Shown here piece after piece: positions 13,659 through 57,280 of a stretch of DNA of 64,000 nt. This stretch comes from Pseudomonadota bacterium (lineage in GTDB: Bacteria; Pseudomonadota; Alphaproteobacteria; Micavibrionales; UBA2020), in contig JAJZVA010000002.1 in assembly GCA_021845905.1 (NCBI GenBank), positions 76,577 to 140,576 of the forward strand, written 5' to 3'. Within the stretch, counting starts at the first letter, position 1, and every line of letters starts with the position of its first letter. The notes under the pieces were generated by a model that ran no database searches, was not told where the DNA came from, and saw only the letters and a program-made list of their open reading frames with translations. The translations under genes were made by a program, and so were the position numbers.

Positions 13659-15893
<2,235 letters not shown>

Positions 15894-16055
15894 TCGGGAA
15901 GACTGGCAAAAATGACCGGGAAGACCGGGTTGCGTTGAGATTCAAGTATTTTGTGGCGAAAATCGTTCCTTTCGAGAACCGGCGCGCAACGGGCTTGAGC
16001 GCCCGTGAGCACCGGAAGCGCAGAAAGGGACGGTTTGCAGACCAAAGGACGCCGA

Positions 16056-17603
16056 ATGTCAACGCAACCCAATAATCCCTGGCTGGTGATGTTCGCCGTC
16101 AGCCTCGCCACCTTCATGGAGGTGCTGGACACGACGATCACCAACGTCTCCCTGCCGCATATCGGCGGAAGCCTCGCCGCGTCGCAGGAGCAGAGCACGT
16201 GGGTGATGACCTCCTATCTCGTCTCCAACGCCATCATCCTGCCGGTTTCGGGCTGGCTCGCCGACGCCATCGGGCGGAAGAAATATTTCATCCTTTCCAT
16301 CGCCTGCTTCACGCTGGCGTCGTTCTTCTGCGGCGCGGCGACGGCCTTGTGGATGATCATCGTCTTCCGCCTGCTGCAGGGCATGGCCGGCGGCGGCCTG
16401 CAGCCGACGCAGAGCGCGATTTTGCTCGACGTCTTTCCGGTCGAGGACAGGCCGAAGGCCTTCGCCCTTTCGGCGGTGACGATGATCGTCGCGCCGGTCA
16501 TCGGGCCGACGCTGGGCGGCTTCATCACCGACAATGTCAGCTGGCGGTGGATTTTCTTCATCAACGTGCCCGTGGGGCTGCTGGCGATCTTTCTCGTCAG
16601 CCGCCTTTATCACGAGCATGCCGAGGCGGCGAAGAAGAAAGTCTCGGTCGATTATTTCGGCTTTCTTCTGATCGCGCTCGGCATCGGCGCGGTGCAGGTC
16701 GTGCTCGACAAGGGTACGCAGTACGACTGGTTCGGCAGCCATTTCATCGTCAGCCTCACCGCGCTGGCGGTCGGCGCGCTGGGGTTCGCCGTCTGGTGGC
16801 TCTTGCGCCAGGAGCATCCGCTGGTGGAATTGCGCCTGCTCAGGATCCCCACCTTCCGCCTCTCCTGCATCCTGATCTTCTTCATGGGGTTCGTGCTTTA
16901 CAGCAGCAGCATTCTCCTGCCGCTGCTGGTGCAGGATTTTTTCCGTTACGACGCGACATGGGCGGGGCTGATCCTCTCGCCGGGCGCGCTGGCGGTGATC
17001 CTGATGATGCCGCTCGTCACGCGCCTCATCCGCGTCTGGAAGCCGAGATACCTGATCGCCACAGGCTTCACGCTCTGCGCGTCGGGCGTTTTCTACACCT
17101 CGCATTTCTCGCCGTCGGCGGACATCTGGACGTTCATCTCGATGCGCGTCCTGACCGTGAGCGGCCTGCCGTTTTTGTTCATTCCCATCAGTACGATGGC
17201 CTACAGCAAGATCGCGCGCCACATGAACAACAAGGCGGCGGCGCTCTATTCCCTCAGCCGCAATCTCGGCGGGAGCTTCGGCATCTCGCTGGTCATGACC
17301 TATCTGTTCCGCCATGCGCAGGCCTGGCAGACCTATCTCGGCGCGCATCTCGCCGCGACAAGCATCGCGACGCAACAGGCCTTGATGCGCAACGCCGCCG
17401 TGCTCAAGGCCGCGGGCGTCGCCCCGTCCGCCGCGCCGGTCGCCGCCAAGGCCCTGTTGTACCGGCAGTTGCAGCAGCAGGCAGGGCTCATGAGTTATGT
17501 CGATTCCTTCCGGCTGATGACGGTGATCATGCTGTTGCTCGTGCCGCTGGCGCTGCTGATGCCCGGCAATTTCCCCAAGAAAGGGGCCGTCGCCGCCGAG
17601 TGA
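16056..17603 (+). CDS. MFS drug:H+ antiporter, DHA2 (EmrB/QacA) family
   Basis: 515 aa from ATG 16056; FMEVLDTTITNVSLPHIGGSL.. signature start, about 14 TM segments. Confidence 0.88.
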   Translation: MSTQPNNPWLVMFAVSLATFMEVLDTTITNVSLPHIGGSLAASQEQSTWVMTSYLVSNAIILPVSGWLADAIGRKKYFILSIACFTLASFFCGAATALWMIIVFRLLQGMAGGGLQPTQSAILLDVFPVEDRPKAFALSAVTMIVAPVIGPTLGGFITDNVSWRWIFFINVPVGLLAIFLVSRLYHEHAEAAKKKVSVDYFGFLLIALGIGAVQVVLDKGTQYDWFGSHFIVSLTALAVGALGFAVWWLLRQEHPLVELRLLRIPTFRLSCILIFFMGFVLYSSSILLPLLVQDFFRYDATWAGLILSPGALAVILMMPLVTRLIRVWKPRYLIATGFTLCASGVFYTSHFSPSADIWTFISMRVLTVSGLPFLFIPISTMAYSKIARHMNNKAAALYSLSRNLGGSFGISLVMTYLFRHAQAWQTYLGAHLAATSIATQQALMRNAAVLKAAGVAPSAAPVAAKALLYRQLQQQAGLMSYVDSFRLMTVIMLLLVPLALLMPGNFPKKGAVAAE

Positions 17604-50155: not shown

Positions 50156-51094
50156 ATGAACGGAATCAAAGCGACTCTCAGAATCGGCACAAGAAGCAGC
50201 CCGCTCGCGCTCGCGCAGGTGGATTTGCTGATCGGCGCGGTGCAGAAGGCGCATCCCGGCGTCGCGTTCGAGATCGTGAAGATCACCACCAGCGGCGACA
50301 GGATTCAGGACCGCGCGCTCAGCGAAGCGGGCGGCAAGGGCCTCTTCACCAAGGAGATCGAGGAGGCGCTTTTGGCGGGAACCATCGACTGCGCCGTCCA
50401 CTCGATGAAGGACATGCCGACGAAGCTGCCGGACGGCCTCGTCATTCCCTGCCTGTTGCCGCGCGAGGATCCGCGCGACGCGTTTTTCTCCCGCCATGGC
50501 GGGTCGCTCGACGATCTGCCCGAAGGATCCGTCGTCGGCACCTCGAGCCTGCGCCGTCAGGCGATCCTTCTCGCCCGCCGTCCGGATTTGAAGATCGCCC
50601 TGCTGCGCGGCAACGTCGGCACAAGATTGCGAAAGCTCGAAGAGGGCGTCGTCGATGCAACATTGCTCGCCGTCGCGGGCCTGAAGCGCCTCGGGCAGGA
50701 GCATCTGATCAGGAACATTCTCGAACCCGACGTGATGCTGCCCGCCGTGGCGCAGGGCGCGGTCGGCATCGAGGTGCGCGGGAACGATGCGCGCGCGCGG
50801 GAGATTCTCTCGTCGGTGCATTGCCATGTGACGGAGTTGCGCGTGACGGCGGAGCGGGCGTTTCTCGACGCGATGGACGGCTCTTGCAAGACGCCGCTCG
50901 CCGCGCTGTTGCAAGAGCCGGACGCGCAGGGCCGCGCGCGTTTCGACGTGCTGGTGGCGCGCCCCGACGGCAGCGACGTCAAGACCGCGTCCGTCATGGC
51001 GGAGGTGCCGGATGTGAAAGCGGCGGACGCGCTCGGGCGCAAGGCCGGACGCGATTTGAAAGCGCGTCTGCCGGAAGGCTATCTGGCGGCCTGA
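50156..51094 (+). CDS. hemC: hydroxymethylbilane synthase (porphobilinogen deaminase)
   Basis: 312 aa; ..LRIGTRSSPLALAQ.., ..TSGD.., ..AVHSMKDMPT.., ..GTSSLRRQ.., ..GSCKTP.. Confidence 0.95.
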   Translation: MNGIKATLRIGTRSSPLALAQVDLLIGAVQKAHPGVAFEIVKITTSGDRIQDRALSEAGGKGLFTKEIEEALLAGTIDCAVHSMKDMPTKLPDGLVIPCLLPREDPRDAFFSRHGGSLDDLPEGSVVGTSSLRRQAILLARRPDLKIALLRGNVGTRLRKLEEGVVDATLLAVAGLKRLGQEHLIRNILEPDVMLPAVAQGAVGIEVRGNDARAREILSSVHCHVTELRVTAERAFLDAMDGSCKTPLAALLQEPDAQGRARFDVLVARPDGSDVKTASVMAEVPDVKAADALGRKAGRDLKARLPEGYLAA

Positions 51095-51122
51095 GAAGCT
51101 GTTTTTATTCGAGAAGCCGTTT

Positions 51123-51593
51123 TCACTTTCCGCCGAGAGCGTCGAGCCTGTCTTTGGCCGCCCGCGCGATGGCGGCGTAGGGTTTGGCGTTGCCTGCCGC
51201 CCTGTGTTCCTGGGCTTTTTTGCTGGCGGCGTCGAAAAGATTGCCGAACGCACTGCGGGCGAGCGGCCGGAGTGCGCGTCGCATGTCATCCGGCAATTTT
51301 TCCGCCGCGTCTTCGGCGAAGGCCAGCGCGTCGCGCGCATTCTGCACGGCGCCGGTTTGCGCGCAGGCCTCGGCGGCGGCGCAGGCGGCTTTGAAAATGC
51401 GCGGCAGCGCCTCTTTCTCGGCAGTCATGATCCGTTCGGAGGCGGTGAAATGCAATCCGAATTCCGGGATGCTTTCGGCGCTGGCGAGGATCGCCGCGGA
51501 CAGGCTGATATGGCCCTGCTCGGCGGCGTCTGCGGAGCGGTTCAGAAGCTCTCTCACCGTATCCACAAGCATGTCGTTTCTGGTCGTTTTCAT
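51123..51593 (-). CDS. hypothetical all-alpha (Ala-rich) protein
   Basis: 156-aa ORF convergent on hemC; AT-rich upstream region 51594-51745; no motif recognised. Confidence 0.45.
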   Translation of the reverse strand: MKTTRNDMLVDTVRELLNRSADAAEQGHISLSAAILASAESIPEFGLHFTASERIMTAEKEALPRIFKAACAAAEACAQTGAVQNARDALAFAEDAAEKLPDDMRRALRPLARSAFGNLFDAASKKAQEHRAAGNAKPYAAIARAAKDRLDALGGK

Positions 51594-51745
51594 GGCGTCT
51601 CTCCTTAAAATGCATTGCGCGGGTGTGCGTGCATGTAATTTAACATATTAATTAAATTTGCAAAATAAATAATTTATTATTTATATATATCAATGGAATA
51701 TATTTTCTCCGTGGAGCAAATCTTTACAACGCGCGACGCGCTTTT

Positions 51746-52390
51746 TTAAAGATGCGGCTTTCCGGCGGACGGCGCGGCGGCGGATTTTTCCCGCAACTGC
51801 GCTTCAATCCGCGCCAGGGTTTTCGGCGCGAGCGCCCAGCCGGGAGATGACGCGGCGTTGAAGGTGGCGCATAAGTTTTTATAAGCTTCCGTCTCCACCA
51901 TGGAGGTGTAAGGGCGATGGCCTTCCGCCGCGCAGGCGAGAAAATAGGCGATGTCGTCAGGGTTAAAGCCGCTCGCGACGCCCTGAATCAGAGTGTAATG
52001 CGCGTAAGGGTCTTTTTGCGTGTCGCAGTTTATCGCGCCAAGGTCGGGATTGCGCGCCACAAGCGCGCAGGCGACTTCCGCCATGCGGCGGCTGAAGCTG
52101 TCGCGCGAGATGTCATTGCGATGGCGCATAAGCAAGGCATATGTTTCGAGATCCTGTGGAGATACGCTCTCCGGCAGGATGTAATGCCGCGCGATGCCTG
52201 AAAGGCCATGGCGTTTCTCAAAAATTGCGGCGGGCTGATGAAAGCGGATGTCCGAAATCTTCAACGTTACCGCCGTGAGTGGCGGCAGGACTTCACTGTA
52301 GGAAAGGCCTGTTTTCGCGTCGACGCAAGACATTCCGCGTCTTTTGAAATAAGCGAGCGTTGCGGAGATGTCGCGGGCGATGTTGTCCAT
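51746..52390 (-). CDS. hypothetical protein
   Basis: 214-aa ORF divergent from the deamidase-like gene; no motif recognised. Confidence 0.5.
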   Translation of the reverse strand: MDNIARDISATLAYFKRRGMSCVDAKTGLSYSEVLPPLTAVTLKISDIRFHQPAAIFEKRHGLSGIARHYILPESVSPQDLETYALLMRHRNDISRDSFSRRMAEVACALVARNPDLGAINCDTQKDPYAHYTLIQGVASGFNPDDIAYFLACAAEGHRPYTSMVETEAYKNLCATFNAASSPGWALAPKTLARIEAQLREKSAAAPSAGKPHL

Positions 52391-52540
52391 GTGGAAGAAA
52401 ATCCTTTGATATTTAATTTACGAAATACTGAAAAATAAGCAAGTGAAAACGGAAATATCATTATTATTCAGCTGGATAATATTTACCTATCCTGCGGTTG
52501 GAAACAAATTCCGCTATCAAGGTCGGCGCTGAAAAATCTC

Positions 52541-52573
52541 TTGAAAATAAATCAATTTGACATATAATGTCAA
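52541..52573 (+). promoter_or_regulatory. near-consensus promoter TTGAAA-16-TATAAT overlapped by a perfect 17-bp palindrome (candidate operator)
   Basis: TTGAAA 52541-52546; TATAAT 52563-52568; palindrome TTGACAT-ATA-ATGTCAA 52557-52573; ATG of downstream gene at 52589. Confidence 0.5.
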
Positions 52574-52588
52574 ATACGGAGCTGGCAG

Positions 52589-53344
52589 ATGGCAGAAGAT
52601 TTGGACAACGTTTTAGATTCGGACAACGCTTTCGACCCGAAAGCCTTCGGCGGGCATTTGAAGGGATACTTTCAGGACAATGCCTGCCGCGCCCTGTCTT
52701 TCTTCGACGCGATGGCGCTTTTCGACCGGCTGGCCGACCGCCCCGACATCGCTTTCGGTTATGTCCGCGATGGATGCTACGCCCGCGCGCATCTGATGTG
52801 CCTTGAGATGGAGGCGCAAGGTTTGGCGCCGCTCAAGGCGTGGGCGCTTGAATATATCTATAAAGGCAACCCTCCGCCCGTCACGATGCCGAATGGAAAG
52901 ATTGCGCGGTGGGACTGGCACGTCGCGCCCGCCCTGCCGGTGCGCATGGCGGAGGGCGATGTGCGGATGATGGTGTTCGATCCCGGTCTGTTCGACGGGC
53001 CGGTGCCGCCCGAGGAGTGGGCGCGGCTCATTCACGTCACGTCTGAAAAGATCAAAATTCTCCCGTTCGGCGCGCCGCCGCTGGATGACAACGGAGATTA
53101 TATCCCCGACAACTCTTCTTTTACGCATCGGGAAGACATTCTCGACCATGCCCGCGCCACGATGGAAAAATACCTTTCTTTCCAGACCGCGCCGCGGCGC
53201 ACCGTCTTTGCTTCGGCGGCGCGGAAACAGGCGTGCGATCAAAAGCCGATGTCTTTCTCGATGCAGGGCAAAACCTGGGTTTCTCTGGACGCCACGGCGA
53301 CAGGGCCCGCCGTCTCGCCGCATCTTCCGCCGTGCGGGCCTTGA
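52589..53344 (+). CDS. protein-glutamine glutaminase-like papain-fold deamidase (Cys-His-Asp), no signal peptide
   Basis: 251 aa; ..RDGCYARAHLM.. (Cys), ..ARWDWHVAPAL.. (His), ..MMVFDPGLFDGPV.. (Asp) match, as I recall it, the C-x-x-RAH-x-M / W-x-YHVA / IDPSLF-x-GPV blocks of Chryseobacterium protein-glutaminase. Confidence 0.65.
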   Translation: MAEDLDNVLDSDNAFDPKAFGGHLKGYFQDNACRALSFFDAMALFDRLADRPDIAFGYVRDGCYARAHLMCLEMEAQGLAPLKAWALEYIYKGNPPPVTMPNGKIARWDWHVAPALPVRMAEGDVRMMVFDPGLFDGPVPPEEWARLIHVTSEKIKILPFGAPPLDDNGDYIPDNSSFTHREDILDHARATMEKYLSFQTAPRRTVFASAARKQACDQKPMSFSMQGKTWVSLDATATGPAVSPHLPPCGP

Positions 53345-53355
53345 GGGAGACGCGC

Positions 53356-53571
53356 ATGAAAACGCTCCGCTCGCAAAGCCGCGTCAGGCGCATCATTGAA
53401 GAAAACGGCGCGTTCCTCGTCGCCTTCGTCATGCACGACGGACTTTTCACCGTGCCGCCGGATTCGCCCGATGTTGCGGCCATGCGCGCGCGGATCCTGC
53501 AAGCGCAGCGCGAAAACGCGGAGGTGTCGTTCGAATACGACAGCGATCTCAATATTGTCGGGTTGTTGTGA
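53356..53571 (+). CDS. small hypothetical protein tightly linked to the deamidase-like gene (candidate inhibitor, immunity protein or chaperone)
   Basis: 71 aa from ATG 53356, 11 nt after the upstream stop, RBS gaggga; MKTLRSQSRVRRIIEENGAFLVAFVMHDGLFTVPPDSPDV.. Confidence 0.5.
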   Translation: MKTLRSQSRVRRIIEENGAFLVAFVMHDGLFTVPPDSPDVAAMRARILQAQRENAEVSFEYDSDLNIVGLL

Positions 53572-53637
53572 GCGCGCACAGCTTCTGTTATAATGCCGCG
53601 AGAAGAAGATATTTCACCGGGGTTCCAGAAAACATCC

Positions 53638-55617
53638 ATGCGCACGGTTCTCGTTACACGCCCGCAGCCGGTCGCGGATGAATTGGCCGAAAGAATCCGC
53701 GCGGGCGGGCATCGGGCCTATGTCGCGCCGATGATGGAATATGTCGCCGTCGCCGCCGCTTTCCCCGATCTTGCCGGTTATCAGGCGCTGATCTTCACCA
53801 GCAGGGAGGGCGTGCGGCATTTTTGCGACATGTCGGCGGCGCGGGACCTGCCCGTGCTCGCCGTCGGCGACGCGACTGCCGCCGCCGCCGCGCAGGCGGG
53901 CTTCGCGCGCATCTTTTCCGCCAAGGGCAACGGCGCCGCCGTCGCCGCGCTGGCGAAAGAGGAAGCGCCCGGGCTGGGCCTCAAAAAGATCCTCCATCCC
54001 TGCAGCGCCGACACGCCGGATGACATTTCCGCCGCGCTCGAAAGCGCGGGCGTCGCCGTCGTGCGCCGCCCCGTCTACAAGGCGGCGCTGACGGAAAAAT
54101 TCCCCGCCGAAGCGGCCGCCGCGCTCCGCGCCGGCCTTGTCGACACGGTCATGCTCTTTTCCACCCGCACGGCGGTCAATTTCGTCCGTCTGCTGCGTCA
54201 GAACGGCCTTGACGGACAAAGCCCGGAGATGGAGGCGATTTGCATCAGCAAGGCCGTTGCGGAGCCGCTTCACGCCCTGCGCTGGCGCGGCGTGCGCGTC
54301 GCGTCAAAGCCGCAGCTCGGCGCGGTGATGCAGGCGCTTGCCGCGGCCGACAAGGCCGACCCCGCCGACCGCCGCCGCAAGACCGACCGCCGCGCGCGTG
54401 ACGCGCAACATGACGCCGACGGCAATATCATCGCCAAAGGCTATGCCGGGCCCGACCGCCGCCGCGCCGCGCGCCGCGCGCACGAGCAAATGCAAAGACA
54501 GCGCATCTGGCAGGAGAAGATGAAATTCGTCAACCGCTCGATGCTGACCTTCGCCTTCATGTTCGCCGCCATCGTCCTCGCCGGGGTTTTCCTCATGGCG
54601 CCGGAATACGCGCGCATCGACCATGTGCCGCTGGCGGGCGGCGGGCAGTCGGTGATGGGGCGGATCGGCGGGATGGTCGGCCATGGCCTCGACACGGTTG
54701 AGAGCGCGGTCGGGCTTTCGCCCGCGCAACCTGCCGCGCCGCCGCCGAAGGATTACACCCAGGTGCTCTACAATCTTTCCGTCCTGCGGCGGCAGGATGG
54801 CGACGCGGCGGCGGAGCGGGCGCTCGCCCGCCTGCAGGCGGCGATGGCCGCGCCCGACGTGCAGACGCCGCAGGACATCGCCCGCGTCGTCGCCGGCCAG
54901 CGTCGGCAAAGCGGCGCGCTCAACAGCCTGTTCGGCTCTCTTGGCGGAGACGACGTCGCGGCGGGCGCGATGCTGCTCGCGCTCAACGAGTTCAGGGGCG
55001 ACGTCAACAGTGGACGCCCTTATGCCGAGGATCTTGCCGTCCTGCAGAAATTCACCGGCAACGACCCGCGCATGAACCGCGCGCTCAGCCGCCTTGCGCC
55101 CTATGCCGCGACCGGCGTGCTCAACCGCCGCGCGCTGCAGGCGGAACTCGGCGGACTGCTGGTCGACGTCATCAAGGCGGAGATGACGGGGCAGGACATT
55201 TCCGTTCAGCAGGACGCGCAGGCGCGCTATGCGCGGCTGGTGAAGGCGGGCAATCTCGCCGCCGTGCAGGGGAGTTCATCCGCCGCGACCGTGGCGCGGG
55301 CGCAGATTTTGCTCGACGAGGGCAACGTCGCCGGCGCGACCGAGCTGCTTGAAACGCTGCAAGGCCCCGCCGCGGGCGTGGTGCAGCCGTGGATGCAGCA
55401 GGCGACGGCCTACAACGCCACCAGCACTGCGGGCGACAGCCTTACGCAAGGCATTCTTTATAATCTCTCGTCGGTGGGGACGACCTCGGCGCAGACGGTG
55501 ATGGAGGAAATCAAGGAGAGCCTCGGCATGGCGACCGTGCCCTACGTGTCGCCGGCCTTGACCGTCGGCCAGCGCGGCGGCGGCGATACCGTCGCGCCGA
55601 CGTCGCTTTTCCCCTGA
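53638..55617 (+). CDS. hemD: uroporphyrinogen-III synthase (HemD) fused in frame to a membrane-anchored Mic60/mitofilin-like (HemX-like) region
   Basis: 659 aa from ATG 53638; N-terminal ~240 aa HemD-like (..VLVTRPQP..IFTSREGV..); Arg-rich linker; TM MLTFAFMFAAIVLAGVFLMA; C-terminus ..ARAQILLDEGNVAGATELLETLQGPAAGVVQPWMQQA.. Confidence 0.75.
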   Translation: MRTVLVTRPQPVADELAERIRAGGHRAYVAPMMEYVAVAAAFPDLAGYQALIFTSREGVRHFCDMSAARDLPVLAVGDATAAAAAQAGFARIFSAKGNGAAVAALAKEEAPGLGLKKILHPCSADTPDDISAALESAGVAVVRRPVYKAALTEKFPAEAAAALRAGLVDTVMLFSTRTAVNFVRLLRQNGLDGQSPEMEAICISKAVAEPLHALRWRGVRVASKPQLGAVMQALAAADKADPADRRRKTDRRARDAQHDADGNIIAKGYAGPDRRRAARRAHEQMQRQRIWQEKMKFVNRSMLTFAFMFAAIVLAGVFLMAPEYARIDHVPLAGGGQSVMGRIGGMVGHGLDTVESAVGLSPAQPAAPPPKDYTQVLYNLSVLRRQDGDAAAERALARLQAAMAAPDVQTPQDIARVVAGQRRQSGALNSLFGSLGGDDVAAGAMLLALNEFRGDVNSGRPYAEDLAVLQKFTGNDPRMNRALSRLAPYAATGVLNRRALQAELGGLLVDVIKAEMTGQDISVQQDAQARYARLVKAGNLAAVQGSSSAATVARAQILLDEGNVAGATELLETLQGPAAGVVQPWMQQATAYNATSTAGDSLTQGILYNLSSVGTTSAQTVMEEIKESLGMATVPYVSPALTVGQRGGGDTVAPTSLFP

Positions 55618-55642: not shown

Positions 55643-56428
55643 TCAGCGCGGGGGCTTGATCCGCACCGCCGGTTTCGATTTTCGCGCGGCGGCGCGCAAG
55701 GCTTCGGTGCGGCGGGCGATCTCTCCGGCCGTTCCGGCGGACGGAGCTGTTTCCGGCGGGCGGTCTTTCTCTGCCATCTGCGGGATGGCGCACCCGTAAA
55801 TCTCGATCTTCTCGCAGTTGGCGCTTCCGAAGTTGTTGTTCCTCGCGTAGTCGAGCGCGACGGAGAAATCCGCGCCGCCGGCGCACAGCAGCTTCAGCGT
55901 CGCGACGGACTGGCAGGCCGTCACCGCATGGGCGAGGATGCAACCCGCCGCGCGGTCGCCGACGGCGGCGTTGGGATTGGCGCCCAGATCCAGCAATACC
56001 CCGGTCAGGGTCTCCGCCATGAAATGCGATATCATCGCGGAGAGAAGCGCGGCATCGAGCGTCTGCTGTCTTTTCGCGGCGGGCACGGCGGCGAGCGCGA
56101 CGCGCGCGGCTGCCAAAGGATCGGCGGGCGCCGGATAGTGGGATCCGGCGCACAGCAGGTCCCCCAGTTCATGGCCGACGTTGATCTTGATTTCCTCGTG
56201 CATGTTGCCGTAGACGGCGTTGAGAAAATGAAACTTGAGCGGTTCCGCCAGCAGCGTCTGGATGTTCTCAGGCCGCCCCTGATGGAAGGCGGCGCGCGCG
56301 CCGAGCTTCAGCATCATGATTTTGTCGTAGGGTTTTTCTTCCGCTTTCAGCGCGGCATAGGCCGCCTCGAAATCGGCCTTTGTGCCGTCGCGGCCGAGCT
56401 CGAAATAATATTGTCCGTCTTGCGCCAT
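55643..56428 (-). CDS. ankyrin-like hypothetical protein, paralog B1
   Basis: 261 aa; ..GVLLDLGANPNAAVGDRAAGCILAHAVTACQSVATLKLLCAGGADFSVAL..; tail ..AAARKSKPAVRIKPPR. Confidence 0.6.
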   Translation of the reverse strand: MAQDGQYYFELGRDGTKADFEAAYAALKAEEKPYDKIMMLKLGARAAFHQGRPENIQTLLAEPLKFHFLNAVYGNMHEEIKINVGHELGDLLCAGSHYPAPADPLAAARVALAAVPAAKRQQTLDAALLSAMISHFMAETLTGVLLDLGANPNAAVGDRAAGCILAHAVTACQSVATLKLLCAGGADFSVALDYARNNNFGSANCEKIEIYGCAIPQMAEKDRPPETAPSAGTAGEIARRTEALRAAARKSKPAVRIKPPR

Positions 56429-56437
56429 GCCGTGCTC

Positions 56438-57280
56438 CTATTTCCGCGGGCGGCGGGCAACGGGCCGCTTGTTGCGCGCGGCATGGAGCCGGCGGACGTG
56501 CGGTTTTTCAGGCGGCTGTTTCGCCGCGGGCGCGTTCGCCCTGATCTCCGATTCCAGAGCGTCGACCCGTTTCGTCAGTTCAAAAAGGTTCTCCGCCAGC
56601 GCGATGATCAGTTCATCCTTCCTTTGCGCGTCGGGATCGTCGGCGGGCGGGGTTACTTTTTGGCGGTAGTCCTCCAGCCTGTCGCGGAAATTCTCGGCCA
56701 GACCGTGTCTAACCATGTAATCTTCCGCCGCCGCGAAATCGCCGCCATGGGTAGAGAGAAGCTTGATGACGGTGCGCGGCAGATTGTTGCGGACGGCAGC
56801 CGTCATGGCGAGACCTGCTTCGATCGTCTTGCTGTTGGCGTCCGCACCCGCGGCGAGCAGAGCGCCGATGAACGTTTCCCCGTATTTTGCTTCAATGGCG
56901 TCGACCAGCGCTTTATCGAGCACGTCCTGCATTTTATATGGGGGCACTTTTTCGAGCGCCAGCTTCACCATCGCTTCAGGTTCCTTGCTTCCGTCCGAGA
57001 GAAAGTAGAGCTGTAGCATGACGTTGATTCTCATTTCAAAAGGCCAGGAGTCCCGATCGTCTGCATAATAGAAGTACGCGAATTCTTCCGGAGCGCCGAG
57101 CACGGTTTGCATTTTCTCCGGTCTGCCGGCGTAAAAAGCCGCGGCTGCGCCGTCAAAAAGCAGGTTTATCTCATTGCGCGGGTCGTGTTTGTTTTTGAGT
57201 TTTTTGAAGGTTTTCTCGAACTCTTCGAGCGTGCATTCGCGTCCCAGCGTGCGGTAATCCGTTTTTCTGCCGAAGATCAT
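56438..57280 (-). CDS. ankyrin-like hypothetical protein, paralog B2
   Basis: 280 aa; RBS aggag; shares ..AAF(Y/H).GRPE..QT.L..P..F.., LDKAL/LDAAL and ..LL..GA(D/N).N.. blocks with B1; tail ..HVRRLHAARNKRPVARRPRK. Confidence 0.6.
   Translation of the reverse strand: MIFGRKTDYRTLGRECTLEEFEKTFKKLKNKHDPRNEINLLFDGAAAAFYAGRPEKMQTVLGAPEEFAYFYYADDRDSWPFEMRINVMLQLYFLSDGSKEPEAMVKLALEKVPPYKMQDVLDKALVDAIEAKYGETFIGALLAAGADANSKTIEAGLAMTAAVRNNLPRTVIKLLSTHGGDFAAAEDYMVRHGLAENFRDRLEDYRQKVTPPADDPDAQRKDELIIALAENLFELTKRVDALESEIRANAPAAKQPPEKPHVRRLHAARNKRPVARRPRK

Follow-up and report, generated by a model that had tools for sequence, protein, structure and literature searches.

The protein-glutaminases (PG; EC 3.5.1.44) of Chryseobacterium and Flavobacterium, structures of which are available (2zk9, 3a56, 8z3i), are food enzymes, secreted as pre-pro-enzymes by hosts belonging to the Bacteroidota. 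Pro-PG is inactive, and the propeptide is still bound to the mature enzyme after its cleavage, its removal having taken 4 M urea (PMC13139226). A different arrangement is found in SpeB–Spi of Streptococcus pyogenes and in the staphopain–staphostatin systems, where a papain/transglutaminase-type cysteine enzyme is adjoined by a co-transcribed, small inhibitor that acts in the cytoplasm to safeguard the producing cell. Spi has been termed “a propeptide analogue” (PMC2873492). SpeB keeps its own signal peptide and its cis pro-region, which makes Spi a back-up, and the staphostatins are lipocalin-like, not propeptide-like. A toxin gene followed by that of a small cognate inhibitor is the order seen in the effector–immunity pairs linked to T6SS PAAR/Rhs or T7SS WXG/LXG proteins and in SPN–IFS, where IFS is a cytoplasmic competitive inhibitor essential for producing the secreted toxin SPN (PMC1298937).

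The locus described here lies in a 64-kb window (the whole stretch of DNA that was analysed) of an alphaproteobacterial genome, and consists of a deamidase gene and a small partner gene. The deamidase, a 251-aa ORF at 52589..53344 on the plus strand, carries three ordered blocks, DGCYARAHLM (residues 61–70), WDWHVAPAL (108–116) and VFDPGLFDGPV (129–139), which a preliminary description of this DNA had taken to be the Cys, His and Asp catalytic blocks of PG. Profile and structure comparison bore this out. The protein scores 81.1 bits with the Pfam family PF18626 (Gln_deamidase_2, the protein-glutaminase family of cysteine deamidases), for which the gathering threshold is 25 (E 8.3e-23; positions 1–104 of the 106 in the profile are covered), and the PG sequences in the PDB are related to it at E of about 1e-6. 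Cys63, His111 and Asp131, whose codons are TGC at 52775..52777, CAC at 52919..52921 and GAT at 52979..52981 (all on the plus strand), align with Cys42, His83 and Asp103 of mature PG (2ksv), and are invariant across 33 homologues (alignment A1). An AlphaFold2 (AF2) model (pLDDT 86, pTM 0.85) was compared with known structures using Foldseek, and its best matches were 8z3i, 2zk9 and 3a56 (E 5e-9), with NTAQ1 next; the only matches at E <= 1e-3 were six PG-family PDB entries (5e-9 to 5e-8, probability 1.00). From sequence and model together, the 251-aa protein is a protein-glutaminase-fold deamidase with predicted activity on protein glutamine, sharing with PG the PF18626 domain, the Cys-His-Asp triad and the fold.

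Glutamine deamidation is the activity of an established group of effectors (CNF1/DNT, Cif/CHBP, BLF1, TecA, OspI, PMT and VopC), in which the same chemistry, hydrolysis of the side-chain amide of a protein Gln by a Cys-His(-Asp) site, inactivates the target or locks it. Their catalytic families differ from PF18626, however, and none of them was a significant Foldseek match of the deamidase model; we know of no propeptide-like immunity partner for effectors of the CNF1, Cif, BLF1, TecA, OspI, PMT or VopC type. The eCIS toxin EAT14, for which the PG structure paper is cited, was also considered as a relative and was set aside, its family being PF09017.

The enzyme departs from PG in several respects. 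It scores 44.6 bits with the NCBIfam PG equivalog NF040782, where 250 are required, and it has an extra C-terminal region, structured in the AF2 model and bearing the motif PRxVF...QGKTW in the alignment. The N-terminus is acidic and has no hydrophobic run; both a signal peptide and a cis pro-sequence (~110 aa) are absent, the catalytic cysteine being reached already at residue 63. Since no earlier start codon lies between 52589 and the preceding in-frame stop, a hidden N-terminal signal or pro-region is impossible. That the ORF has no signal peptide was thus rightly noted at the outset, whereas the accompanying view that it has no pro-peptide holds in cis only, a structural counterpart being encoded separately by the 71-aa partner (see below). 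An N-terminal motif, xFN(E/D)xA, was also seen. Trafficking domains (PAAR, WXG, Rhs or others) were not found on the protein, no T1SS substrate signature was identified in it, and no effector-delivery apparatus was found in the 64-kb window.

The partner gene (71 aa; 53356..53571, plus strand) begins 11 nt past the TGA of the deamidase gene, and its own Shine–Dalgarno sequence, GGGAG at 53345..53349 on the plus strand, can be read within this 11-nt spacer, 6 nt before the ATG. The tight coupling remarked on in the preliminary description proved to be a property of the family: among 22 related signal-less loci that were examined, 17 have a homologous ORF of 63–79 aa downstream of the deamidase, at a spacing of −28 to +39 nt, and where partner proteins were traced back to their genes, a deamidase gene directly preceded all three. 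The partner is absent from the other 5 related loci, tandem deamidase arrays included. The two genes constitute a two-gene operon, the second gene of which is translationally coupled. The identity matrices of deamidase and partner co-vary (Mantel r 0.78; 0 of 5000 permutations). No match in Pfam, NCBIfam or PADLOC was obtained for the partner, nor for the neighbouring 156-aa and 214-aa ORFs, and the partner family is currently unannotated, with neither a Pfam nor an NCBIfam model. A pair of this kind was not found described in the searchable literature, in agreement with the preliminary description.

The small ORF might have arisen by chance or be unrelated to its neighbour, in which case any resemblance to a PG pro-region would be fortuitous, the OB-like fold being a common one. 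A word-index search with the single sequence did match only the partner itself, and the protein looked at that stage like an orphan. That impression was corrected by the DNA that follows the genes of deamidase homologues, and by searches with a profile and exhaustive ones. The resulting family shows ~39% mean identity over 19 loci, always in the same place and orientation, and is represented by 29 clusters among 1.84 billion proteins, the representatives being stand-alone proteins of about 59–104 residues, with the exception of one spurious match to a repeat protein. The spurious match, P0129 (464 aa, four matched stretches), is an acidic repeat surface protein and was discarded. An origin by chance is very unlikely against this conservation, and also because the best structural matches of the partner and one of its top sequence matches point to the pro-region of precisely that enzyme family to which the adjacent gene belongs.

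These matches were obtained as follows. The AF2 model of the partner (pLDDT 93.7) has a beta-beta-beta-alpha-beta-beta topology, and its best Foldseek matches were the pro-PG chains 3a56_B, 3a54_A and 3a56_A (TM 0.76–0.82, rmsd 1.9 Å over 65–71 columns), while the mature-only PG entries 2zk9 and 2ksv were missing from the list. The E-values are marginal (4e-3 to 1.4e-2), and the chance explanation could draw upon them and upon the OB-like fold, given the similar scores of other OB-fold proteins, with cholera-toxin B-type pentamer subunits almost on a par. In sequence, the partner-family profile maps to residues 32–75 of 3a56_A, i.e., inside the 114-aa pro-sequence, at a sub-threshold E of 0.38; this pro-region is nevertheless among the top 4 sequence matches of the profile in about 178,000 PDB sequences. 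Smith–Waterman comparisons of the partners with the PG pro-region segment gave shuffle z-scores with a median of 4.7 (above 3 in 25 of 35), and the motif I-x-EENG-xxx-V-x-F is common to both. The region that is resembled is the core of the PG pro-region, including its Ala47 loop. Residue 47 of the pro-PG chain is an alanine, the site mutated in the deposited “A47Q” structures according to their titles, and it aligns with Asp28 of the partner, the second residue of a conserved loop, H-[D/S/A]-G-Y-F, that connects strands 2 and 3 (His27-Asp28-Gly29, codons at 53434..53442 on the plus strand). The central position of this H-x-G is never Gln in the 19 family members compared. Signal-peptide-bearing homologues (P0040–P0072) have pro-like segments of ~100 aa with a motif FKVEYR, in which no similarity to the partner family was found (hhalign probability 0.4%), and the partner link is therefore specific to the pro-region of the Chryseobacterium/Flavobacterium type. 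Individual statistics are marginal, yet their concordance is strong, and judged from sequence and model the partner looks like the counterpart of the PG pro-peptide, encoded in trans as a free-standing pro-domain core. Where PG carries this element as an N-terminal segment that is proteolysed, here it is the product of a separate downstream gene.

A pro-domain may do more than inhibit. Pro-regions of secreted hydrolases, many protease pro-domains among them, commonly aid folding. The partner could accordingly be mainly an intermolecular folding chaperone for a non-toxic, released glutaminase with a protein-modifying or nutritional function as in Chryseobacterium, its inhibitory effect being incidental. 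The likeness of the partner to the PG pro-region would suit such a role, and so would the retention of the cleaved PG propeptide by its enzyme (PMC13139226). For an enzyme of this kind, however, a Sec or Tat signal for exit would be expected and none is present, the score lies far under the PG equivalog cutoff, and relatives of the enzyme are found on PAAR and WXG100 toxin scaffolds. The conserved, plug-like loop that avoids Gln also answers the need of an inhibitor, not that of a foldase. We consider the chaperone explanation improbable.

By analogy, SpeB–Spi and staphopain–staphostatin would be the closest mechanistic precedent for the pair. The differences are that this locus encodes a deamidase in place of a protease, that the families are unrelated in sequence, and that the trans copy stands alone, there being no cis pro-region for which it could be a back-up.

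Expression of the pair would start from a sigma-70-like promoter, TTGAAA-16-TATAAT, at 52541..52568 on the plus strand, which agrees with the consensus at 11 of 12 positions and has the highest score among 4 promoter-like sites within 3 kb (51000–54000), where 1.6 +/- 1.3 are expected. The predicted transcription start at about 52575 gives a leader of ~14 nt that includes the deamidase Shine–Dalgarno sequence, read as GGAG at 52578..52581 on the plus strand, 7 nt before the ATG. At the other end, a weak terminator-like hairpin (53565..53582, plus strand) overlaps the partner stop codon and is followed by a promoter-like site for hemD (53566–53594). No Rfam match was found within the window. 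The ORFs and promoter features given in the preliminary description are all present at their coordinates; the palindrome across the −10 box, described there as 7-3-7, is real and unique in the window, but is in fact longer, a perfect 9-3-9 repeat, ATTTGACAT-ATA-ATGTCAAAT, at 52555..52575, which overlaps the −10 box as well as the predicted start of transcription (0.08 such palindromes expected even allowing 2 mismatches). It had suggested a repressible promoter. Comparison between loci lends this idea no support: the palindrome was not found upstream of 15 homologous pairs, where the regions are AT-rich and contain other, unrelated short palindromes, and its minus strand contains a TTGACA, the −35 element of a promoter-like site that is read divergently (52573..52544) and faces the 214-aa gene. 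At this one locus, the palindrome might conceivably still act as an operator.

The genomic setting of the pair bears on whether the enzyme leaves the cell at all. Throughout one clade, housekeeping genes flank the pair in a neighbourhood that is conserved (rpe, a heparinase-like gene, the pair, FtsJ, IMPDH), and in two genomes, that of this locus and another metagenome-assembled genome (MAG), it occupies the slot between hemC and hemD. When the two latter are compared, deamidase and partner are 53% and 59% identical, versus 73% for HemD; the faster divergence of the pair than of its neighbour speaks for a toxin. The synteny looks like vertical inheritance, unlike that of a mobile polymorphic toxin cassette. 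A search of 72,556 plasmids gave 4 positives, all of them megaplasmids with distant architectures, and none were found in phages; the match on a Sinorhizobium megaplasmid is an unannotated protein of 370 aa without a detectable partner. The family is concentrated in genomes of Micavibrio-like (predatory) Alphaproteobacteria.

Such a setting would suit an intracellular enzyme that is conditionally released to act on the cell's own proteins, resembling a toxin–antitoxin system or a regulated housekeeping deamidase, its labile or displaceable pro-domain-like inhibitor being lost under stress and nothing being exported. The residence of the pair among chromosomal housekeeping genes throughout a clade, and in the hemC–hemD slot of two genomes, is in keeping with this, as are the lack of an export signal, of a delivery domain and of secretion genes in the window, the tight translational coupling reminiscent of toxin–antitoxin operons, and the strong promoter of its own with the overlapping palindrome. 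The unconserved nature of the palindrome detracts from the last of these. Moreover, the gene order, enzyme before inhibitor, is of the immunity type, no toxin–antitoxin family was matched in PADLOC, Pfam or NCBIfam, and delivery proteins of the T6SS and WXG100 kinds demonstrably carry this catalytic domain. A type II toxin–antitoxin module in particular fits poorly: the partner, a predicted beta-barrel with one helix, has no DNA-binding domain of the HTH, RHH or AbrB type by which the operon could be autoregulated, and the patchy, mobile distribution that would be expected is contradicted by the near-absence from plasmids, the absence from phages and the synteny conserved within clades. An enzyme kept for intracellular use is a possible though rather unlikely explanation. 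Of the two layouts originally proposed for the pair, effector–immunity or toxin–antitoxin, it is the logic of the former that was retained, owing to the fusion proteins described next, and the type II toxin–antitoxin alternative that is the poorer fit.

PF18626 forms the C-terminal warhead of several PAAR proteins (P0035, P0036 and P0038), whose genes come immediately behind that of VgrG in T6SS clusters, and of one WXG100 protein (P0042); these delivery fusions are more distant homologues, and not the window protein itself. As in effector–immunity pairs, each is followed by a downstream ORF. Behind the PAAR fusions these are unannotated ORFs of 153 or 154 aa, whose C-terminal half is weakly like the partner profile (hhalign probability 25%, P 8e-4, over 49 columns that include the HDG loop), and next to the WXG100 fusion there is likewise an unannotated ORF. 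The small ORFs that follow longer deamidases (425–535 aa) resemble the partner profile more closely (hhalign probability 80%, E 1.4e-5). Profiles of the ORFs behind the PAAR fusions or the long deamidases found nothing relevant among PDB sequences, and Pfam revealed no additional N-terminal domains in the longer deamidase homologues. In P0051, what resembles the end of an Rhs core is visible by eye only. In contrast to the polymorphic toxins, the protein in the window has neither a delivery domain nor an apparatus nearby, and the pair is syntenic and apparently vertical, instead of mobile and polymorphic.

The use of the same warhead on T6SS PAAR and WXG100 proteins, together with the concentration of the family in Micavibrio-like genomes, makes an effector role the most likely one, and the best reading of the locus, to which we assign a probability of roughly 55%, is that of an effector deamidase with a pro-domain-like immunity protein. 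We infer that the enzyme would be made in the cytoplasm and bound there 1:1 by the 71-residue partner, whose His27-Asp28-Gly29 loop would insert over the catalytic cysteine in the manner of the Ala47 loop of the PG pro-region. Binding would silence the enzyme within the producer, with activity arising only upon its separation from the partner; the deamidase would be a toxin exported and deployed against other cells, and the partner its predicted trans inhibitor, i.e., its immunity protein. A broader proposal, which we put forward tentatively and at somewhat short of even odds, is that PG-fold glutamine deamidases form a previously unrecognised class of toxins, used by Micavibrio-like predators and, in other phyla, as the warheads of PAAR, WXG100 and possibly Rhs proteins, the immunity proteins being zymogen pro-domains that have become detached and block the active site by a loop mimicking the substrate.

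Mutation of Asp28 of the partner to Gln, analogous to the A47Q pro-PG structures, offers a direct experimental handle. The production of industrial protein-glutaminases is made difficult by the need to remove the pro-peptide, and members of the partner family might serve as specific protein inhibitors of these enzymes or as aids to their expression, while the deamidase family is a source of candidate new protein deamidases, possibly substrate-specific ones. If the effector reading is true, the PG fold would join the warheads of interbacterial and predatory toxins, and a new family of immunity proteins, or inhibitors, would be defined. The pair would then be a clean case of a zymogen pro-domain acting as an immunity protein in trans, so far hinted at only by SpeB–Spi. 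On the broader proposal, evolution would have led directly from the pro-peptides of zymogens to the immunity proteins of toxins or the other way round, and export of effectors that lack a signal would call for an as yet undescribed route in these predators, a question that bears on how proteins are delivered to prey by epibiotic predators that have neither a T3SS nor a T4SS.

The deamidase is encoded by a 251-aa open reading frame on the plus strand (52589–53344) that contains the blocks DGCYARAHLM, WDWHVAPAL and VFDPGLFDGPV as described, and the partner, a 71-aa frame (53356–53571, plus strand) with its own Shine–Dalgarno sequence (GGGAG, 6 nt upstream), begins 11 nt beyond the deamidase stop, as had also been reported. 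The lack of a signal or pro-peptide claimed for the enzyme is real, since no start codon lies between the preceding in-frame stop and 52589, and the enzyme has an acidic N-terminus. The proposed promoter, TTGAAA-16-TATAAT, was found at 52541–52568, where it scores 11 of 12 matches and is the top site of the surrounding 3 kb. The palindrome overlapping it is present, though longer than the 7-3-7 of the preliminary description: it is a perfect 9-3-9, ATTTGACAT-ATA-ATGTCAAAT (52555–52575), single-copy in the window against a chance expectation of 0.08, and thus statistically real. It was not found upstream of 15 homologous pairs, and its minus strand holds a TTGACA, creating a divergent promoter-like site facing a 214-aa orphan gene, so that its interpretation as a repressible operator is left without support, such a role being possible.

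By its profile score (81 bits against a cutoff of 25), the enzyme is a clear member of Pfam PF18626 (Gln_deamidase_2), and by the NCBIfam protein-glutaminase (PG) equivalog (44.6 bits against the 250 required) it is not an orthologue of the Chryseobacterium enzyme. Sequence searches reach solved protein-glutaminases at an E of about 1e-6, and Cys63, His111 and Asp131, which correspond to Cys42, His83 and Asp103 of mature PG when counted through the sequence alignment, are invariant in an alignment of 33 homologues, which bears out the proposed link of the three blocks to the Cys, His and Asp of PG. The AlphaFold2 model (pLDDT 86, pTM 0.85, ordered up to about residue 235) has six significant matches in the PDB, all of them protein-glutaminase entries (E 5e-9 to 5e-8), followed by the N-terminal-glutamine amidase NTAQ1. 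The alignment of homologues displays a short conserved 'xFN(E/D)xA' in the disordered first ~20 residues of the family (AFDPKA in the window) and, in some homologues, a C-terminal amphipathic basic tail (G-L/W-x-x-R-x-K...) that the window deamidase lacks; a role in targeting or export is possible for either element.

A single-sequence search with the partner returned nothing but the partner itself. The DNA downstream of deamidase homologues was inspected in 39 genome loci, and almost every close relative had a 63–79-aa frame downstream of the deamidase gene, at a distance of −28 to +39 nt; the frames give a good alignment, whose consensus is V-R-R-I-x-E-x-D-G-x-F-L-V-S-F-x-x-H-x-G-Y-F ... A ... 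I-x-F-x-Y-D-x-x-L-N-I. The partner-family HMM finds a partner at 17 of the 22 loci with signal-less deamidase homologues, and in the reverse test all three partner proteins from long contigs lay directly 3′ of a PF18626 gene, so the gene pair is conserved. The partner is missing at the other five, among them loci with two or three deamidase paralogues in tandem. Such arrays lie at L023 2695–4049, L024 1780–4062 and L031 2667–4565, where no partner frame is detectable, and at L052 9327–10922 (on a contig shared with L008), where two deamidase genes precede a single partner. A profile search gave 37 hits and an exhaustive search of 1.84 billion representatives gave 29 representatives, all stand-alone unannotated proteins of about 59–104 residues (most about 65–70), one repeat-protein match being spurious. 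Over 19 loci the divergence of the deamidase tracks that of the partner (Mantel r 0.78, 0 of 5000 permutations) and is equally large, with a mean identity of about 39% for each protein.

The AlphaFold2 model of the partner (pLDDT 93.7, beta-beta-beta-alpha-beta-beta) has as its best PDB matches the pro-region-bearing form of PG, pro-PG (3a56_B, 3a54_A and 3a56_A; TM 0.76–0.82 on the query, rmsd 1.9 Å, 65–71 columns), with 8z3i at TM 0.61. The mature-only entries 2zk9 and 2ksv (same mature sequence) are missing from the partner's match list, and the structural match must therefore lie in the pro-region. The partner-family sequence profile matched residues 32–75 of 3a56_A (E 0.38, sub-threshold, rank 4 of about 178,000 sequences), which are inside the pro-region because the PG pro-sequence has 114 residues (PMC6132073) and the pro and mature chain numberings differ by 114 in the deamidase alignment. 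At the aligned stretch the window partner reads IIEENGAFLVAF and pro-PG reads IDEENGMIKVSF, and Smith–Waterman comparison of 35 family members with the pro-region segment gave a median z of 4.7 against shuffles, values somewhat inflated by the HMM-chosen segment. The fold is OB-like, and AB5-toxin B subunits score almost equally in the PDB structure search; pro-like segments of signal-bearing homologues showed no similarity to the partner on comparison. Each statistic is marginal; what gives the identification its weight is that the two best hits, obtained independently, both point to the pro-region of the very enzyme family whose gene is adjacent.

Chain residue 47 of pro-PG, an Ala in the profile register, is the one named in deposited 'A47Q mutant of pro-protein-glutaminase' entries, and was reportedly placed by Hashizume et al. 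in 2011 on a short loop that connects strands 2 and 3 and lies over the catalytic pocket. It corresponds to Asp28 of the partner, at position x of the conserved H-x-G-Y-F loop; in the partner model this loop, too, connects strands 2 and 3. The position is Asp, Ser or Ala in 19 of 19 partners and Gln in none. That the partner is purely a foldase is unlikely, and would leave the conserved non-Gln loop unexplained. A non-covalent inhibitor acting in trans is plausible, since pro-PG is inactive and the cleaved propeptide remains on the mature enzyme, its removal having taken 4 M urea (PMC13139226). The partner is probably a homologue of the pro-domain, encoded in trans, that keeps the enzyme silent in the cytoplasm of the producing cell.

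Four architectures were distinguished among 76 deamidase homologues: signal-less proteins of about 210–300 aa with the catalytic Cys near residue 40–60, which include the window deamidase; proteins in which a signal peptide is combined with a pro-like segment (about 100 aa); proteins that have a signal peptide alone; and delivery-domain fusions, i.e., PAAR+PF18626 (P0035, P0036, P0038), WXG100+PF18626 (P0042) and P0051, a contig-truncated protein whose start resembles an Rhs core end by eye, with no confirmation from Pfam. The PAAR fusion genes lie directly 3′ of VgrG within T6SS clusters (TssF, TssG, ClpV), each followed by a 153–154-aa unannotated frame, and the WXG100 fusion gene (L048 2577–4161) is followed by a 216-aa frame with a lipoprotein-like N-terminus (…LVAAALAC…). 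Should the latter be an immunity protein, the WXG100 variant may work beyond the cytoplasmic membrane, with amidated residues of the cell wall as a possible target. Over 50 loci the partner HMM gave weak matches to a handful of frames only, the best all directly downstream of more distant deamidase genes; in profile–profile comparison the partner matched the small frames after 425–535-aa deamidases (80% probability, E 1.4e-5, 59 columns) and, weakly, the T6SS-linked frames (25% probability, P 8e-4, 49 columns including an HDG loop).

Other companions were also seen. In Roseateles, an Anaerolineae MAG and Crossiella (L028 5073–6136, L029 4929–6007, L038 4413–5970), the deamidase domain has at its C-terminus a 'CTYWITVxNLT...FEGRY' module that repeats as at least one extra small frame directly downstream, unlike the 71-aa family. 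A Gemmatales MAG (L022 2944–5543) has two tandem 186–188-aa deamidase genes (putative frames in high-GC DNA), with a similar frame of about 240 aa before or after each, an arrangement suggestive of a two-gene cassette that was duplicated and has a further type of companion.

The window is unremarkable as a stretch of alphaproteobacterial chromosome, with a high GC (62%) and housekeeping genes (glycine cleavage, transketolase, DXS, IspH, BacA, TsaD, HemC, HemD, FabF-like), and no effector-delivery system was found within its 64 kb. The only export-related pair, an HlyD-family membrane-fusion protein (667 aa) and an MFS transporter (532 aa) at 13890–17603 (plus strand), looks like a drug-efflux type rather than protein secretion. 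The deamidase pair sits between hemC and hemD alongside two opposite-strand orphans of 156 aa (51123–51593) and 214 aa (51746–52390, divergent from the palindrome-bearing intergenic region), in a block with a GC of 0.49–0.63 against 0.65–0.71; the orphans have a low GC (0.54–0.58) and no match in Pfam, NCBIfam or PADLOC. In the MAG REEB87 (L005) the pair occupies the same slot without the orphans, with identities to the window of 73% for HemD, 53% for the deamidase and 59% for the partner. In a second clade the surroundings are conserved, in the order rpe, a heparinase-II/III-like gene, the pair, a 183-aa two-TM protein, FtsJ, IMPDH and RsmB. The two-TM protein, conserved at 182–186 aa directly after the partner gene in the Micavibrio-like clade (L053 8221–8772, L055 8225–8773, L057 8223–8783), matches nothing in Pfam, has its pair of transmembrane helices at the C-terminus, and is absent from the window. 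The deamidase occurs on 4 of 72,556 plasmids and in none of the phages searched which, with the synteny, indicates a stable, vertically inherited module and not a mobile cassette. The classic type II toxin–antitoxin reading, one of the two layouts first proposed, therefore fits poorly: the module is not mobile and the partner has no DNA-binding domain.

Further genes follow the pair in the window. The hemD gene (53593–55617, plus strand, gene-caller start 53638) encodes a 659–674-aa fusion with HEM4 at residues 29–245 and a long C-terminal part with a membrane segment; a weak, below-threshold Mitofilin (Mic60) match (residues 556–606, E 5e-4) suggests that it may be an alphaproteobacterial Mic60-like protein joined to HemD in the hemC–hemD cluster. 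Two neighbouring minus-strand paralogues of 261 and 280 aa (55643–56428 and 56438–57280; 32% identity, E 5e-26) match nothing in Pfam; they show an ankyrin-like 'LLxxGAxxN' motif and end in strongly basic tails, and the GC falls to 0.51–0.58 across the second. Both are possible additional accessory or effector-like genes.

Among the carriers, several bear the label Micavibrio sp. and one Bdellovibrionales; cultured Micavibrio is reported to have type I and II secretion, without type III or IV (PMC3189940). The pair is predicted, with a probability of roughly 0.55, to be an effector–immunity system, with export of the enzyme or its delivery to other cells, a reading favoured by the use of this warhead on T6SS and WXG100 proteins, the immunity-type gene order, the faster evolution of the pair than of its neighbours and the predator-labelled genomes among the carriers. 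It is weakened by the conserved synteny, the loci that miss the partner and the lack of a recognisable export signal or apparatus, and the main rival, a deamidase that stays intracellular and is conditionally released, is considered rather unlikely.

The preliminary description knew of no such system, and full-text literature searches likewise found no paper on PF18626 proteins as toxins with immunity partners, the only related remark concerning Dot/Icm genes near some family members (PMC10318531). Cytoplasmic inhibitors of secreted toxic enzymes, a logic proposed for the window pair, are known from staphopain–staphostatin and SPN–IFS (PMC1298937). The closest mechanistic precedent is SpeB–Spi, where the gene for a cysteine protease lies next to that for an inhibitor described as 'a propeptide analogue' (PMC2873492), whereas the window encodes a deamidase from another family, with the trans copy as its sole pro-domain.
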